Source of the DNA: Ktedonobacteraceae bacterium | Lineage (GTDB): Bacteria > Chloroflexota > Ktedonobacteria > Ktedonobacterales > Ktedonobacteraceae | Length of the DNA stretch: 38,588 bases | Direction of reading: 5' to 3' | NCBI GenBank assembly: GCA_036501345.1 | Contig: DASYAN010000358.1 | Coordinates: forward strand, 1 to 38,588 | Shown: positions 13,998 to 38,586 of the stretch, piece by piece | Position numbering within the stretch: position 1 is the first letter of the stretch | How the letters are laid out: each line of letters opens with the position of its first letter | The notes under the pieces: model-generated | Database searches by the model: none | Told to the model about the DNA's origin: nothing | What the model saw: the letters and a program-made list of their open reading frames with translations, nothing else | Translations under genes and position numbers: made by a program

Positions 13998-15311
13998 ATG
14001 GTTAAATCTAACCTTTATAAATTTCGATTTCTTATAGTAATAGTAGCTGCAGTAGTAGTCATTGTGGCTATCTGGCAATTCTCATCACCGCACTCGTCTC
14101 CTAAACCAACTCCGCCAAACGTATCAACTACGCCTTCTCCGACAAAGTATAAACCTGGGAATAGCATTGTCAATAATACGGGCACATCAGACAGTATAAA
14201 TTTAATGCTCAATTTTACTCATAATGTTACTGATCCTGCTGCAATAGCTAAATATTATAGCTTTGTCTGGGGAGCTTCACTTCAGCAGGTCTCGGAGTTG
14301 CGTGCAGGCAATCCAAAGATATTGCTGAGCTACTATTTCCCATTTTACCGTGACAATGGGTCATTTGATAATCAAAATCTTGGCCTACAACAAAACCTTA
14401 CCTATTGGCGCTCTTTTCATCCAGATTGGATTCTTTATAAGTGTGATCGTTCCACACCAGCTTATTTTGCGGACGATAATGATCAGAGTGATAATAGAGT
14501 GCCGCTCGATTTTACCAATCCAGCCGTTATTGACTGGCAGTTACAAACATATGCAGTACCAGCCAGCCAGAACGGGTATGATGCTATTGCTGCCGATAAT
14601 GTCGATCTAGTGAATACATATGGAGCCTGTGGTGTCTATCATAATGGACAATGGGTACAATTGTTTAGTGGCAAACAGGATGATCCCAAATGGCGTAATG
14701 CTGTCTTGAACTGGTTAACACAGATGCAGAGTGCATTGCACCAATTGTCCCACCCTCTGTACCTTATTCCTAACCTTGCTCTTGGTTCAGTCTCGCCAAG
14801 CGACCCTTTTACACAACAAATAGTTAGCCATGTTGATGGCATCTCGGATGAATCGGGTTTCACTCACTATGGTGATGGTAATATAACAGATACGGATTTG
14901 CTACAAAAATTTCAATTCATTGAAAATGTGCAACAGCAACATAAACCCTATTTCATTATTGACGAAGTTTCTAGCACGGACAATGCCGAAATACAATGGA
15001 GCCTCGGTACATATTTGATGTGTAACGAAGGTAGTGCCACCCTATTTATTTCTCTTCCCCAGGACTATGGCAGCGACGCACGCTACCCACAGTATAACAT
15101 TCCAATTGGCAATCCTACTGATGAAATGTATGAGGCACAAAATGTCTACTGGCGCGACTATACCGGCGGGCTAGTTGCTGTTAACCCAAGTAGTGAAAAC
15201 GCATATACAGTCACGACGTCATCTAGCCACTACCTTGATACCAGTGGAAATGCTGTCAGTCGGACATTTAACCTACCACCACATTCAGCAATGATCCTAT
15301 TGCATGCATGA
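13998..15311 (+). CDS. Membrane-anchored/secreted GH114-like glycoside hydrolase (endo-alpha-1,4-polygalactosaminidase-like TIM barrel), tentative
   Basis: The ORF track lists 13977-15311. I prefer the ATG at 13998 because AGGAG lies 9 nt upstream. The protein has an N-terminal TM helix and a Pro/Ser/Thr linker. The segment PLDFTNPAVIDWQLQ...NGYDAIAADNVDLVNTYG resembles the GH114 GFDGVxxDNxDxY region. Confidence 0.5.
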   Translation: MVKSNLYKFRFLIVIVAAVVVIVAIWQFSSPHSSPKPTPPNVSTTPSPTKYKPGNSIVNNTGTSDSINLMLNFTHNVTDPAAIAKYYSFVWGASLQQVSELRAGNPKILLSYYFPFYRDNGSFDNQNLGLQQNLTYWRSFHPDWILYKCDRSTPAYFADDNDQSDNRVPLDFTNPAVIDWQLQTYAVPASQNGYDAIAADNVDLVNTYGACGVYHNGQWVQLFSGKQDDPKWRNAVLNWLTQMQSALHQLSHPLYLIPNLALGSVSPSDPFTQQIVSHVDGISDESGFTHYGDGNITDTDLLQKFQFIENVQQQHKPYFIIDEVSSTDNAEIQWSLGTYLMCNEGSATLFISLPQDYGSDARYPQYNIPIGNPTDEMYEAQNVYWRDYTGGLVAVNPSSENAYTVTTSSSHYLDTSGNAVSRTFNLPPHSAMILLHA

Positions 15312-15354
15312 GTGTGCATATTTTTGGATTAGGATTAACAAGGGGCGCAGGAAG

Positions 15355-15418
15355 TCCCATCCCGTTTAGGGGATTGGGATGAAAGTGCCTACCTTTTATG
15401 GGGCTTGGGCACAGGGGT
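15355..15418 (+). repeat. Dispersed repeat family, copy C (inside the left end of the tnpB element)
   Basis: It contains an imperfect hairpin at 15355-15379. An exact 20-mer, TGGGGCTTGGGCACAGGGGT (15399-15418), is also present at 32061-32080. Flanking positions align with copies at 24599-24706 and 31997-32083. Confidence 0.7.
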
Positions 15419-15427
15419 CATGTCCGC

Positions 15428-15462
15428 TTGACATGCAACCATAATAATAGTAAAATGGTTGC
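15428..15462 (+). promoter_or_regulatory. Sigma-70-type promoter with embedded inverted-repeat operator upstream of the RHH gene
   Basis: TTGACA (15428-15433), a 17-nt spacer, then TAAAAT (15451-15456). A perfect 8-bp inverted repeat, GCAACCAT (15435-15442) / ATGGTTGC (15455-15462), spans the spacer and the -10. The predicted TSS roughly coincides with the GTG start at 15463. Confidence 0.5.
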
Positions 15463-15615
15463 GTGAAAGACGAGATCAAACCTCTCACCATCCGGTTTCC
15501 TGAACATCTTTTGGAACAGATACGAGAGGTGGCAAAACAGAATAATCGGTCTCTCAATCGAGAAATCTTGACTGCCATACAAGAGCACATCAAAAGACAG
15601 AAGAAAGGCAGGTAA
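15463..15615 (+). CDS. Arc/CopG-type ribbon-helix-helix DNA-binding protein (50 aa)
   Basis: Below the ORF-track size cutoff. My translation from GTG is VKDEIKPLTIRFPEHLLEQIREVAKQNNRSLNREILTAIQEHIKRQKKGR*. It has a beta-strand followed by two helices, and the RSLNxEI motif is typical of Arc-like RHH proteins. It ends 6 nt before the tnpB ATG. Confidence 0.6.
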   Translation: MKDEIKPLTIRFPEHLLEQIREVAKQNNRSLNREILTAIQEHIKRQKKGR

Positions 15616-15621
15616 ACAGCC

Positions 15622-16800
15622 ATGAACACGGTGTATATCCACCGATTGCAGCCTACCCCGAAGCTGTTTGCCTGCTTGAAAGCTGCGCAGATGGAAGCCG
15701 CTCGTGTATGGAACCTCTGCTGTGAGATCCATAAGCAAGCAAGAATGGAACATGCCAAATGGCCCGGTCGCAACGATCTGCAAAAAGCAACCAAGGGTCA
15801 ATTTGCCTTGCATAGTCAATCTGTGCAGATGGTGGTCCATGCTTTCCTTGCCAACGTCGATACCACGCGTCAGCTCCGTCAAAGCCATCCTCAAATGAAA
15901 ATGAAATACCCATGGCGTGAGAAGCGTTTCTACCCGGTCAAATGGCCCGCTCAGGCTGTGAGCCGTGAGAACGAACGCGTTGTCCTGCCGATGGGCAAGG
16001 GACGCACATCCATTGTGCTGCCAATTGAACTGCCAGAAAAGAGCGGTGCTTGTAGCCTTGTTTGGAATAACGGCTTTGAGTTGCATGTCTGTATTGAACA
16101 GCCTCAAGAAAAGGAAGCACCAGGTGATGTGCATGCGACAGTAGACTTAGGGGAAATCCATCTTGCAGCAGTCTCGACAAATACCGGACAAGCCATGATC
16201 GTGACAGGTCGTGGTATCCGATCTCTCAAGCGTCAGAGGACGAAGCAACTGGGCAAAATTGGAAAGCGACAATCTAAATGCACAAAGTACTCTCGCAGAT
16301 GGAAGAAAATCCAAAGAGCCAAGAACAAGATCAAGTCGAGAGCAGAGCGCCGTATTCGTGATATGCGACACAAAGCCACACGAAAAGTGATCAATTTCTG
16401 TGTTGAGCAGAAAGTTGGTTCTCTCTTCATAGGCAATCCCCATGGTGTTCGCAGTCGAGATAGTGGAAGACACCACAACCAACGTATGGCTCTATGGGAA
16501 TATGGCAAGGATATCGACTACCTGACCCACAAATCCAAACAAGCCCACATCATGAGCTTCACTGGCTCGGAACGAGGAACAAGTAGCCAGTGTCCTGTCT
16601 GTGGGCATAAACATAAGCCTAAGAACAGAAATTGGGCATGTAAGGCCTGTGGCTTTACCGGACACCGTGATATTGTTGGATCGGTGAATATGCATACGCT
16701 TGCTTTCAGTGAGCAGGTAACCTTTCCTCGTTCCGTTACGTATCTACGCCCCTGCTTGTCTCGGCGTAGTAGTAGGGCAGACGCGCCCCTGGCATCGTGA
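15622..16800 (+). CDS. tnpB: TnpB (IS200/IS605 OrfB, RNA-guided RuvC nuclease family)
   Basis: 392 aa. RuvC-I is ATVDLGEIHLAAV. The zinc finger is CPVCGHKHKPKNRNWACKACGFTGHRD and RuvC-III is HRDIVGSVNM. The canonical RuvC-II Glu position reads FIGNP. Confidence 0.9.
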   Translation: MNTVYIHRLQPTPKLFACLKAAQMEAARVWNLCCEIHKQARMEHAKWPGRNDLQKATKGQFALHSQSVQMVVHAFLANVDTTRQLRQSHPQMKMKYPWREKRFYPVKWPAQAVSRENERVVLPMGKGRTSIVLPIELPEKSGACSLVWNNGFELHVCIEQPQEKEAPGDVHATVDLGEIHLAAVSTNTGQAMIVTGRGIRSLKRQRTKQLGKIGKRQSKCTKYSRRWKKIQRAKNKIKSRAERRIRDMRHKATRKVINFCVEQKVGSLFIGNPHGVRSRDSGRHHNQRMALWEYGKDIDYLTHKSKQAHIMSFTGSERGTSSQCPVCGHKHKPKNRNWACKACGFTGHRDIVGSVNMHTLAFSEQVTFPRSVTYLRPCLSRRSSRADAPLAS

Positions 16801-16925
16801 TCGATGCTTGTTGTCTGAGTCAGCCAACGGATCAACCACTGCTATCTGAGCAGGTTCTTTCGAGAACAGGCCATACCGTTGAAGTGACTCAGAAGCTCAT
16901 CCCCTTCTAGGGGATAGAGAGTCGT
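16640..16925 (+). ncRNA. Predicted TnpB omega RNA (reRNA) overlapping the tnpB 3' end and right end; 5' limit unknown
   Basis: In known TnpB systems the omega RNA spans the gene 3' end and the RE. Here a long-range stem joins 16814-16830 to 16876-16893 (9+6 bp). It encloses a GTTCT/AGAAC hairpin and is followed by the RE hairpin at 16899-16915. Confidence 0.45.
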
Positions 16926-16951
16926 CACCAGATTAAAATGGAGTAGAAAAA

Positions 16952-18046
16952 ATGCAGCAGGATGCATCCATCATGCATATACAACACAAACACCAAAAGC
17001 CATTACGGGTCTTGATGGTAACAGGTATCTATCCAACAGCAGAACGTCCACACAAAGGCACATTTGTCAAAAGTCTAGTTGATTCGCTCGCAGCTGTAGG
17101 GGTAGAGGTTGAGGTTATTCATCCAAAACCAAGCTTGCCTACACTATTGCGCTATGTAATAGCAACAACACAGGTATTTTGTAAAACATTGACAAAACAT
17201 TTTGATGTTGTGAATGGCCATTATGGTCTTTGGTGTGTTGTTGCTCGTTTACAATGGAGAACACCAGTGGTGGCCAGTTACCTGGGAGATGACGTTCTAG
17301 GGACGGTTGTAGCTAGGGGAGAATATAGCTCCAAGGGCAATTTCGTAGCCTCCGTCAGCCATAAACTGTGCTACTTTGTAGATGCAGTGACAGTTAAATC
17401 CGAACAGATGAAACAAAGGTTAGGAGGTCCCCAAGAGAAGGTCTTTGTTATACCTGATGGTGTCAATTTTTCGCAGTTTTATCCCATGCCACGATCAGAG
17501 GTGCGAGCAACACTTGGCTGGGATCAGGATCGTTACTATGTTCTTTTTGCTAACAACCCAGAGATCCCTGTGAAAAATTTTGCCATGGCTCAAGCCGCTG
17601 TCGATATCCTACGTGCAAAGGGGCTTGATGTCGAACTAGTAGTTGCGACTGGGCTGTCACATGATACTGTGATGCAATACACGAATGCAAGTAATGCACT
17701 CATTCTTCCATCCTGGGCAGAGGGCTCACCCAACGTTGTGAGAGAGGCGATGGCCTGCAATGTGCCAGTAGTAGCAACCAACGTTGGCGATGTGGCCGAC
17801 GTAATCGGCCATACAGAAGGCTGTAGCATCTGCGCACACGATCCAGAGGAGCTGGCAGATGGATTGCAACGAGCGCTAGAGTACACAGGACCAACAACAG
17901 GAAGACAGGATACACAATATCTGGCAAGTGCAGTAATCGCGCAACGGGTCATTGAACTATACGAGCAAATAATGCAGAAAAAAGGCAAAGGAAAGCTAAA
18001 AGAGGAAATAATACCAAATAGTTCAAAGGATAAGGCTTATGTCTAA
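16952..18046 (+). CDS. Glycosyltransferase (GT4/GT1 GT-B fold)
   Basis: 364 aa. Signature WAEGSPNVVREAMACNVPVVATNVGDVADVI. Confidence 0.85.
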   Translation: MQQDASIMHIQHKHQKPLRVLMVTGIYPTAERPHKGTFVKSLVDSLAAVGVEVEVIHPKPSLPTLLRYVIATTQVFCKTLTKHFDVVNGHYGLWCVVARLQWRTPVVASYLGDDVLGTVVARGEYSSKGNFVASVSHKLCYFVDAVTVKSEQMKQRLGGPQEKVFVIPDGVNFSQFYPMPRSEVRATLGWDQDRYYVLFANNPEIPVKNFAMAQAAVDILRAKGLDVELVVATGLSHDTVMQYTNASNALILPSWAEGSPNVVREAMACNVPVVATNVGDVADVIGHTEGCSICAHDPEELADGLQRALEYTGPTTGRQDTQYLASAVIAQRVIELYEQIMQKKGKGKLKEEIIPNSSKDKAYV

Positions 18047-24601: not shown

Positions 24602-24706
24602 CAAACTGCGACCTGCAGATACCCCTTGCTTGAGCTATAGGGTACATTGCGATCAAGCGAACGGAAGCAGGTCTTCCTTTCTTGAGAGCTGTCGCATAGG
24701 GGTAAG
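24599..24706 (+). repeat. Dispersed repeat family, copy A (solo, intergenic; includes the start codon of the 23594-24601 gene)
   Basis: It aligns with 31997-32083. TCATCAAACT(G)CGACCTGnnGATACCCCT(T)GCTT is followed by an insertion of about 27 nt. GGAAGCAGGTCTTCCTTTCTTG and AGGGGTAAG come after that. Downstream are the hairpins CATAGGGGT/ACCCCTATG (24695-24728) and GGCGTT/AACGCC (24739-24759). Confidence 0.7.
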
Positions 24707-37137: not shown

Positions 37138-38586
37138 TTACCTATTCAAAACATCAGTCAGGCGTTGAAGTTGAGATTGAAAGTGTTTCCTCACTTCATC
37201 ATCCGTCGGAGGTTTGGTATAAGTTGGCCTTAATGCAATATAGGGATATGTTTCTAAAGTGTGGTTTAGATCTGGATCTACAGTAAAATGAGCAGCTCCA
37301 GCGATAATAAAAATTTTTTTGTCAGGAAATAGTTGTGTTATATTCTTAAGCACGTTTGCTAGTGATAAGTTCCGTTGTCTAAATATAATATCATCAAGAG
37401 TACTATGAAATTCATCATTATATAAACTTGGTGCATTTTCCATCATACTCCTTGCTTTGTTGTGTAAATCCATATTATCCCATCCAATCGCTATAATACC
37501 TTTTTGTATAAATTTTGTGTATTTACAATCTTCTTGTTTTATTGGCCTATAAGCTTGAACCCCTTCAATTAAAACGATATCATGAGGACGTGCAAGGATT
37601 TCAATAATTCTTGCGTTCCAGGTGACGTGTTCTGGAAGTTTATGATTTTCTCCTAGTGCAATAATCTTTGCATCTTTTATCTTTTCTATTGGTGTATTTG
37701 CGCTAGTCAGTTTAAAACACGCTGATTCCGAGCTGTTTTTCCTACAGTAAAACTCCCAAGTATCGGGAGGATTTTTTTGCTTTACCCCCCACTCTCCAGA
37801 GGGGAATTTTCGAGAGTATTCCCCTGGTTGGATATCAGTTCGAGAGTATTCCCCTGGTTGGATATCAGGGCGATGTTTATAAACTCCTCCTACGTTGTTA
37901 CATTTACGACTGACCTCAGAGACCATCCCATCCTCGATACCTTCTACACGGCCTGTACCCACAATCTTGTTCGTCTGGGAATCTCGATAGATTATGAGAT
38001 CTCCCACTTTCTCTTGAGAAGGCTGGACTGGCGTATAATTAGCTTGGAGAATCGTTTCAGCTGCCTCTGGGTCGTGAAGATGCCCACCGCTTTCTTCCTT
38101 CCCAAAGAATCCATAGCCAAGCCGATTACACTTGCAGTTAGGAGCTTCAATCATCTGAACCATATCATCTCTGCCTGGAGTACCGACATATCCTTGCTGT
38201 TTGAGGAGGTTCCACTCAAAAACGTTACCGAGAGAAGATCCCGATGCGACACGCAGATCTAGGAGCACGATGTTTCCTGTATCCGTGAGAAATAAATGTT
38301 TTTGGAGAGGAAAAACACGATCAGTAGCGGGAAGCCCATGTGCATGTCGCAGTCTTTCTACTGGTGTTCTTGATGTGGTATCTCTTCGGCTATCTTGTAG
38401 ATCACGCGGGCGCTCAGAATATTTAGATGATTCAACTTTGTCCATAAGATTGACGTTTGGACAAAAGAGAACCAAAGGGTGGGGAAGGTTGCGAGAGGCA
38501 GTGTGATGGGGTAAAGTTCCTTGCAGAATACAAAAAAGAGGAGCTTCACCCGAATGGACCTTACCACATTGCAGGAATTTCGGCAA
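37138..38586 (-). CDS. Large hypothetical protein (5' end may lie outside window) with a C-terminal Tiki/ChaN/TraB-superfamily-like domain
   Basis: The frame is open to the window edge; the first codon in the track is TTG, and an internal Met (MDKVESSKY) is possible. The C-terminal about 200 aa carry two GxxH-type motifs, IIALGENH and IIAGAAH, as in the Tiki/ChaN/erythromycin-esterase superfamily. The middle contains a tandem peptide repeat. Confidence 0.55.
   Translation of the reverse strand: MPKFLQCGKVHSGEAPLFCILQGTLPHHTASRNLPHPLVLFCPNVNLMDKVESSKYSERPRDLQDSRRDTTSRTPVERLRHAHGLPATDRVFPLQKHLFLTDTGNIVLLDLRVASGSSLGNVFEWNLLKQQGYVGTPGRDDMVQMIEAPNCKCNRLGYGFFGKEESGGHLHDPEAAETILQANYTPVQPSQEKVGDLIIYRDSQTNKIVGTGRVEGIEDGMVSEVSRKCNNVGGVYKHRPDIQPGEYSRTDIQPGEYSRKFPSGEWGVKQKNPPDTWEFYCRKNSSESACFKLTSANTPIEKIKDAKIIALGENHKLPEHVTWNARIIEILARPHDIVLIEGVQAYRPIKQEDCKYTKFIQKGIIAIGWDNMDLHNKARSMMENAPSLYNDEFHSTLDDIIFRQRNLSLANVLKNITQLFPDKKIFIIAGAAHFTVDPDLNHTLETYPYIALRPTYTKPPTDDEVRKHFQSQLQRLTDVLNR
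37811..37870. repeat. 30-nt tandem duplication inside the 37138-38586 ORF
   Basis: CGAGAGTATTCCCCTGGTTGGATATCAG occurs at 37811-37838 and again at 37841-37868, identical at 28 of 30 positions per unit. It encodes DIQPGEYSR twice, in frame. Confidence 0.9.

Follow-up and report, generated by a model that had tools for sequence, protein, structure and literature searches.

A gene for an Arc-like protein with a putative operator in its own promoter precedes tnpB in a tnpA-less IS200/IS605-family element of a Ktedonobacteraceae bacterium

Contig DASYAN010000358.1 of the Ktedonobacteraceae bacterium assembly GCA_036501345.1 (positions 1-38,588, forward strand; this whole stretch of 38,588 nt is referred to below as the window) contains a compact mobile element with two co-directional genes. 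The first, arc, codes for a 50-residue ribbon-helix-helix (RHH) protein; the second, tnpB, is followed by a structured 3' region that resembles an omega-RNA scaffold (Table 1). No tnpA gene is present in the element or elsewhere in the 38.6-kb window. The segment from 15340 to 16928 is classified by these features as a tnpA-less, non-autonomous IS200/IS605-family element of ∼1.6 kb, non-autonomous because TnpA would have to be supplied in trans.

The arc product matches the Pfam Arc family (PF03869; E = 2.6e-10; 40.4 bits, with a cut-off of 20.4) over residues 10-45, and its residues 6-46 align with residues 8-48 of solved P22 Arc chains (E = 1.6e-5 to 2.4e-5), whereas Pfam RHH_1/CopG is matched weakly (E = 0.03). 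A first-pass annotation, made from the letters alone, had read this gene as a 50-residue Arc-like RHH gene ending 6 nt before tnpB; the family matches and the gene coordinates (15615 and 15622) agree with that reading. The protein collection holds 34 Arc homologues at 72-90% identity.

The promoter predicted directly upstream of arc, TTGACA-17-TAAAAT, is of sigma-70 type and presumably strong; it is as near to consensus as the first-pass annotation claimed (11 of 12 positions), and it is the best promoter-like site within 14800-17400. A terminator-like hairpin with a T-run (15301-15318) ends the GHL15-like gene upstream of the element, and an internal promoter would therefore be needed. The -10 element is separated from the arc start codon by 6 nt. 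An inverted repeat overlaps this promoter, with a perfect core (8 of 8 positions: GCAACCAT at 15435-15442, 12 nt, ATGGTTGC at 15455-15462) that had been noticed in the first pass and can be extended to 10 of 11 positions. Its left arm abuts the -35 element and its right arm spans the end of the -10 element and the start codon, with 20 bp between the arm centres. Chance alone would be expected to give 0.23 inverted-repeat patterns (up to three mismatches) and 0.33 promoter patterns (up to one mismatch) per window. The combination is nevertheless taken to exceed chance because the two are co-located and because the same geometry, -35/17 nt/-10/6 nt/ATG anchored on the start codon, is present in 50 of 53 distinct homologous upstream sequences. 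Since the invariant 6-nt spacing leaves a leader no room, the arc mRNA is probably leaderless, with the GTG codon at the predicted transcription start. A 10-nt inverted match to 15430-15439 within tnpB (16080-16089) was considered as an auxiliary half-site and judged to be fortuitous, as about one such pair is estimated per 1.75 kb and the match lies in conserved GFELH codons.

Arc loci were gathered by exact-protein look-ups, a viral scan and a metagenome scan, giving 101 loci including the window (individual loci are denoted by L numbers). In ∼93 of the 97 loci with room for a downstream gene, tnpB lies 0-6 nt downstream of arc. Pairwise dN/dS values for arc range from 0.04 to 0.2, with synonymous sites near saturation, and arc is therefore a protein-coding gene under purifying selection. 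The RHH-tnpB pair that the first-pass annotation described at a single locus thus recurs together with its repeat, and the small reading frame shows coding conservation. When the 49 closest tnpB loci of representative genomes were searched with Arc by tblastn, no match was returned; non-conservation of the pair, which these arc-less loci had suggested, was dropped once the look-ups and the metagenome scan had produced ∼100 arc loci. Between the left end and tnpB, 18 of the 49 arc-less relatives carry a divergent Y1_Tnp gene (Pfam E = 2.8e-40), and the others have remnants of a Y1 transposase gene or just a short spacer at that position. Within up to 2.5-3 kb on each side, none of the ∼100 arc loci contains tnpA. 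Because tnpA holds this position in arc-less relatives and never joins arc, we conclude that arc stands in the place of tnpA, as had been claimed.

The two arms of the repeat vary together. Complementarity between arms amounts to 4.4 of 6 core pairs, compared with 3.36 ± 0.14 when arms are permuted between elements, and none of 10000 permutations gave a value as high. The complementary half-sites fall into at least four classes (GCAACC/GGTTGC, GTAGC[CT]/AGCTAC, ATGTCC/GGACAT and GCAGTT/AACTGC). Direct-repeat variants occupy the same two positions in four distinct upstream sequences from five loci (L056, L087, L097, L100 and L103), which points to a bound protein and not a hairpin. Arc residues 7-9 track the half-site (PLT with GGTTGC, TLT with AGCTAC, SLS with GGACAT and ALT with AGTTAC), and this correspondence holds across the TnpB lineages described below; the mutual information is 1.96, compared with 1.0 after permutation, and was reached in 0 of 5000 permutations. 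Positions 7, 9 and 11 of the window Arc align with Gln9, Asn11 and Arg13 of P22 Arc, which we take to be the residues that read operator bases.

Taken together, we conclude with a probability of roughly 75% that an Arc-like repressor with an operator in its own promoter controls an arc-tnpB operon in which arc replaces tnpA. The pairing, the purifying selection, the fixed geometry and the co-variation of the arms and of the Arc beta-strand all agree with the layout of an autoregulated RHH repressor that the first-pass annotation had proposed. RNA polymerase would start at or next to the arc start codon and generate a leaderless arc message, and the transcript would run on through tnpB into the 3' omega-RNA. 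Arc dimers would bind both arms, one at the -35 element and one over the -10 end and start codon, and bound Arc would occlude RNA polymerase, so that Arc, TnpB and guide RNA would all be held at low, self-limited levels. Arc could also repress in trans other copies with half-sites of the same class. That Arc binds DNA and acts as a repressor, that transcription starts at this point and that the omega-RNA is co-transcribed are all inferred here from sequence.

Several observations weigh against this conclusion. The co-variation statistics ignore kinship, and arc and its promoter are physically linked and co-inherited; because shared ancestry is uncorrected, the co-variation is strong circumstantial evidence and not proof. 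The 20-bp spacing of the arm centres is greater than the ∼11-bp spacing in the P22 Arc operator, and the closest arc-less relatives persist without such a regulator. The window copy is itself unusual. Its Arc has arginine at position 33, where 34 of 34 homologues have glycine, and Arc output or activity may be reduced. Its arc has a GTG start codon, in contrast to ATG in 50 of the 53 distinct upstream sequences, and the only other GTG loci (L102, L104 and L105) are degenerate, with an R11G substitution and a disrupted tnpB. The closest relative, L072, whose Arc is 96% and TnpB 90% identical to those of the window, has an ATG start and Gly33.

Table 1. Coordinates of features of the arc-tnpB element and its immediate flanks in the window
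Feature	Position	Strand	Details
TTAAC	15335..15339	+	Conserved pentanucleotide just outside the left end
Left end, lineage-A type	15340..15388	+	Imperfect hairpin 15355-15379 (TCCCATCCC / GGGGATTGGGA)
Inner left-end segment, lineage-B type	15389..15427	+	Contains G-rich box GGGGCTTGGGCACAGGGG (15400-15417)
Promoter of the arc-tnpB operon (predicted)	15428..15456	+	TTGACA 15428-15433, 17 nt, TAAAAT 15451-15456
Putative Arc operator	15432..15465	.	Arms CATGCAACCAT (15432-15442) and ATGGTTGCGTG (15455-15465), matching at 10/11 positions
arc, 50-aa ribbon-helix-helix repressor gene (predicted)	15463..15615	+	GTG start; Pfam Arc and P22 Arc matches
tnpB, 392 aa	15622..16800	+	Starts 6 nt past the arc stop
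Omega-RNA scaffold region (predicted)	16737..16928	+	Overlaps the tnpB 3' end and stops at the right end; 5' limit approximate
Putative guide-templating flank CAGATTAAAATGGAGTAGAA	16929..16948	+	4 nt upstream of the glycosyltransferase start (16952)

The element is inserted between a GHL15 glycosyl-hydrolase-like gene upstream and a GT4 glycosyltransferase gene downstream, in line with the earlier placement in a spacer between two polysaccharide genes. The similar hairpins near its ends, also described earlier, are present as imperfect subterminal structures, but alignment to relatives moves the boundaries from 15336 and 16925 to 15340 and 16928. Over 15340-15388, the window shares 80-90% identity with left ends of lineage-A elements, whether arc-bearing or arc-less. 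The right-end hairpin (16896-16919) resembles the left one, and the hairpins of both ends are kept among relatives through compensatory changes; the element has no terminal inverted repeats. The right terminus (...GTCGTCAC) lies at 16928; the alignment with ∼20 relatives breaks off there, where unrelated flanks begin. A TTAAC is present immediately outside the left end not only in the window but also in L052, L004, L006, L008, L042 and L072, whose flanks are unrelated, and by analogy with IS200/IS605 biology it is presumed to serve as the TnpA target and the TnpB transposon-adjacent motif (TAM). Among representative genomes, the closest tnpB loci (51-84% protein identity) belong to Ktedonobacteria and other members of the Chloroflexota. 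No empty site emerged from exact look-ups of the window TnpB and the downstream glycosyltransferase: every contig returned had the identical insertion, apart from one that begins inside the right end. Besides the window, two metagenome (JGI) contigs carry the identical element at the same site, and the searches gave a single genomic context for the exact element. The gene caller left arc uncalled on both of these public contigs, a reminder that 50-aa genes of this kind escape gene callers. The right end is followed after 23 nt by the glycosyltransferase start codon; transcription crossing this end, as guide synthesis demands, could enter the GT4 genes and speculatively place them under partial Arc control.

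The tnpB product matches NCBIfam guided_TnpB (E = 1.6e-46) as well as Pfam OrfB_IS605 and Cas12f1-like_TNB. Alignment to solved Cas12f and TnpB-like chains places D175, D350 and a CxxC...CxxC zinc finger, a glycine (G271, in FIGNPHG) at the canonical RuvC-II Glu position, and E293 (in WEYG) 22 residues after G271. None of these residues, the CxxC pairs included, varies among 36 relatives. The predicted site agrees with a class described by Altae-Tran et al. (2023; PMC10691335), in which the catalytic site is rearranged by a Glu-to-Gly change and the glutamate is relocated. The features do not fit a TldR-type, nuclease-dead TnpB, which is marked by loss of RuvC catalytic residues and of transposon ends: D175, E293 and D350, the presumed catalytic residues, are invariant, and the ends and omega-RNA are conserved.

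Across 21 lineage-A loci, the ∼190-nt region at the 3' end of the element has an alignment-derived consensus structure in which 30 of the 57 pairs show compensatory changes, and a conserved multi-helix structure of this sort is as expected for an omega-RNA scaffold. Rfam returned no matches for the region at the gathering threshold or at E values up to 1. In the usual TnpB omega-RNA layout, the guide corresponds to the first ∼16-20 nt beyond the right end. At the junction of the two genes, the conserved Lys-rich tail of Arc (KKGK/KKGR; AAGAAAGGCAGG here) doubles as a purine-rich, Shine-Dalgarno-like stretch 9-17 nt before the tnpB start (window 15613-15621), and conservation of the tail may derive partly from translational coupling to tnpB.

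The TnpB proteins encoded behind Arc belong to three lineages, A, B and C, which are ∼24-39% identical to each other, whereas the Arc proteins are 68-96% identical. Lineage A comprises the window, L072/L073/L130 (∼90% identity) and L052-L055, and has the rearranged catalytic site. Lineage B, which contains the majority of loci, has the canonical glutamate and is ∼24% identical to A; lineage C is ∼30-39% identical to B and also has a canonical catalytic site. Arc distance is uncoupled from TnpB distance, as illustrated by the window Arc, for which dN is 0.10-0.11 to both L052 (A) and L050 (B). Homology between the window and arc-less lineage-A relatives ends at ∼15391 and returns at the start of tnpB. 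This gap opens with a G-rich box of lineage-B type that precedes arc by 61-67 nt in 45 loci of lineages A, B and C, and that was not found in arc-less lineage-A loci. Judged by these segment homologies, the window element is a chimera in which a lineage-A hairpin is joined to a lineage-B inner left end, promoter, operator and arc, followed by a lineage-A tnpB, omega-RNA and right end. Identity between L130 and the window is 74% in the promoter, 82% in arc and 85-91% in the remainder of the element, values that are suggestive of a recent cassette swap. An arc-specific role for the G-rich box, or its use as an extra Arc operator, was rejected, as the box also occurs in a lineage-B-type left end beside an IsrB-like gene (32002-32082).

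The peculiarities of the window copy could mean that, although the family module is a repressor system, this copy is a decaying relic, in which arc is poorly translated from a leaderless GTG or its product is weakened by G33R, leaving the promoter unrepressed or held by Arc from other copies. Both changes are unique or nearly so in the family, the other GTG loci are degenerate, and the exact element is represented in one genomic context. Decay of this kind is nevertheless rather unlikely: the operator is perfect in its core and matches at 10 of 11 positions when extended, arc has no frameshift or stop, and tnpB, the omega-RNA region and both ends are intact. Position 33 corresponds to Ser35 of P22 Arc, so glycine is not strictly required in the fold, and GUG is known to support leaderless translation in some bacteria, mycobacteria for example. 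The repeat itself might instead function as a nucleic-acid hairpin, either an RNA stem that masks the arc start in read-through transcripts or a single-stranded DNA structure used in transposition. The start codon does lie within the right arm, complementarity is kept by compensatory changes, and IS200/IS605 biology depends on DNA hairpins. However, the left arm is upstream of the predicted transcription start and would therefore be untranscribed, the five direct-repeat loci have 0 of 6 core complementarity and cannot form a stem, many non-wobble mismatches (A-C, C-A) are tolerated, and the motif class follows the Arc beta-strand. We therefore consider a hairpin function very improbable.

A protein-level role has been proposed by Altae-Tran et al. 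(2023; PMC10691335), who interpreted RHH-tnpB operons with a rearranged catalytic site as toxin-antitoxin systems; applied to the window, the RHH protein would mainly neutralise TnpB, and promoter binding would be the usual antitoxin autoregulation. The window TnpB site is likewise rearranged (G271, E293), and the compact two-gene arrangement, RHH gene first, recalls type II modules. Against this, a 50-residue protein with its Arc domain at 10-45 has no C-terminal toxin-binding extension, and the similar Arc proteins precede three divergent TnpB lineages, one rearranged and two canonical, which makes a conserved protein-protein interface unlikely. The RuvC-III Asp is also kept, where the archaeal clade has an Asp-to-His change, and transposon ends are kept in many contexts; neutralisation of TnpB as the main function is accordingly improbable in our judgment. 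It is also highly unlikely that the main target of Arc lies elsewhere, at the transposon ends (with TnpA in trans) or at host promoters, or that Arc has become a domesticated regulator of the polysaccharide genes. Outgoing transcription from the element could reach the nearby glycosyltransferase gene, and weaker off-target peaks were seen by chromatin immunoprecipitation (ChIP) of Arc proteins from IS605-family elements (Moon, Zedaveinyte, Wiegand and Sternberg, bioRxiv, 28 Sept 2026, 10.64898/2026.09.24.754181; hereafter Moon et al.). The operator pattern has no second copy in the window, however, and the promoter-embedded repeat is the only sequence that co-varies with Arc; family members lie beside unrelated genes, and the native promoter predominated where specific binding was detected (Moon et al., 10.64898/2026.09.24.754181). 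Domestication, which the first-pass annotation had entertained, is not supported, given the intact ends, TTAAC target, omega-RNA and TnpB catalytic residues and the many contexts in which the family occurs.

Building on autoregulation of the arc-tnpB operon, which we prefer to these alternatives, we tentatively raise the further possibility that promoter, operator and arc constitute a self-contained cassette that recombines among unrelated OMEGA (obligate mobile element-guided activity) elements, with the specificity classes of its beta-strand and operator (at least four to five) acting as trans-repression groups. Such a cassette would be consistent with the shared Arc over three TnpB lineages, the chimeric window element, the half-site classes that cross lineages and the mutual exclusivity of arc and tnpA. 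If this is true, copies of the same class would share one pool of Arc and through it gauge their combined copy number, other classes would escape, and the groups would resemble those of phage immunity or plasmid incompatibility.

Some loci have other gene arrangements or surroundings. Four arc homologues lack a direct tnpB (L056 at 2501-2692, L089, L101 and L118; in L056 a phage-integrase-like gene pair lies downstream) and could represent decayed elements or arc modules recruited elsewhere. A lineage-B arc-tnpB element is present on the 94.5-kb viral-classed contig IMGVR_UViG_3300021437_000010 (L071/L112), and L050 is surrounded by many short unannotated genes of phage-like appearance; phages may carry arc-tnpB elements between hosts. 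In the arc-less lineage-A locus L014, a different 61-aa open reading frame (ORF; 2338-2523, MGTEPHQTMRVWKKTHKLLRMIAAQTDESMVEVLHRLAQ...) lies between the left end and tnpB, and a frame-disrupted counterpart is present in L010. Its product looks RHH-like by eye, a Pfam search with it gave no significant match (best E = 0.03, to unrelated families), and such relatives may have acquired a small regulator independently.

The first-pass annotation was aware of no described regulator for TnpB/OMEGA elements, a statement that is outdated. Arc-like RHH ORFs were found in association with TnpB, Cas12k and other mobile elements by Zedaveinyte et al. (10.1101/2023.11.20.567912; Science 2024). Using ChIP followed by sequencing, reporter assays and mutagenesis, Moon et al. 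(10.64898/2026.09.24.754181) reported that Arc proteins of IS605 elements, including elements with only arc and tnpB, bind and repress their native promoter and that repression is relieved when the beta-strand or the binding site is mutated; their analysis included an 8,024-protein tree and a transposon-associated Arc clade (n = 362). In those elements, as here, a small Arc RHH gene lies by tnpB inside the insertion sequence boundaries with motifs over its own -35 and -10 elements, and the proposed role is tnpB repression with autoregulation. Their characterised examples are from Clostridia, typically with a bidirectional promoter that drives arc and tnpA in one direction and tnpB in the other, arc+tnpB-only elements having been tested too; leaderless messages, palindromes and Chloroflexota are unmentioned in the main text (10.64898/2026.09.24.754181). 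In the window family, in contrast, arc and tnpB are co-directional, 6 nt apart here, without tnpA in the ∼100 loci, the arc message is probably leaderless, and the hosts are soil Chloroflexota (Ktedonobacteria-like). The window locus is a new example of a principle already published.

In the P22 immI region, arc is the first gene of the operon that it represses (arc-ant, from Pant), and the operator is part of the promoter, lying between the -35 and -10 elements and over them. The window shares with arc-ant a homologous protein (E ∼2e-5), the first position of arc in the operon and an operator in the promoter. It differs in that the payload is an RNA-guided nuclease with its guide RNA and not an antirepressor, in that the arms are 20 bp apart, centre to centre, whereas the P22 operator is a compact 21 bp, and in that there is no Mnt partner.

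In CopG-RepB of plasmid pMV158 (PMC2724298), a 45-50-aa RHH protein encoded by the first of two genes represses a single promoter by blocking RNA polymerase, and thereby sets the dose of a downstream replication or mobility protein. That system controls plasmid copy number and is not a transposon, and the window protein has its clear match to Arc. The archaeal RHH/MazE-TnpB operons (PMC10691335) likewise have an RHH gene directly before a rearranged-site tnpB and a 3' region long enough for a guide RNA, but they are apparently immobile, carry an Asp-to-His change in RuvC-III and have been read as toxin-antitoxin systems; the window element is bacterial, with intact ends, D350 kept and a RuvC-II Glu-to-Gly change. 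In CRISPR-associated transposons (CAST) of type V-K, CvkR is a transposon-encoded repressor that sets expression of a TnpB-derived RNA-guided protein, Cas12k; it is of MerR type, and these transposons are Tn7-like and not of the IS200/IS605 family. Some V-K systems are predicted to have Arc-like RHH proteins, according to work cited in Moon et al. (10.64898/2026.09.24.754181).

Elsewhere in the window, a second OMEGA-type element is located at 31999-33473 on the minus strand. Its 385-aa ORF (31999-33156, minus strand) matches Pfam RRXRR (E = 2.8e-37) without an HNH match, and by this domain content it is IsrB/IscB-like. Directly upstream of the ORF, at 33223-33473, lies a full-length but sub-threshold match to the Rfam HEARO RNA (38.4 bits, with a gathering threshold of 83; E = 6.9e-6). 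Past the ORF stop (32002-32082), an IS200/IS605-type hairpin is followed by the G-rich box of the arc cassette (copy at 32062). A 22-nt sequence at 24663-24684 (GGAAGCAGGTCTTCCTTTCTTG) is 95% identical to the inner left-end-like sequence at 32041-32062 and may be a remnant of the same kind of transposon end. At 37809-37868, a 30-nt unit (TTCGAGAGTATTCCCCTGGTTGGATATCAG) is perfectly duplicated in tandem.

How the levels of TnpB nuclease and its guide are controlled in native hosts is a live question, relevant both to transposon biology and to how Cas12 systems arose. The locus described here adds a distant phylum and a compact, co-directional and probably leaderless layout that mirrors P22 arc-ant. 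The matched variants of beta-strand and operator offer a natural series for testing RHH recognition, or orthogonal repressor-promoter pairs for TnpB tools. The locus also adds evidence for a module that would move between unrelated TnpB lineages and substitute for tnpA.

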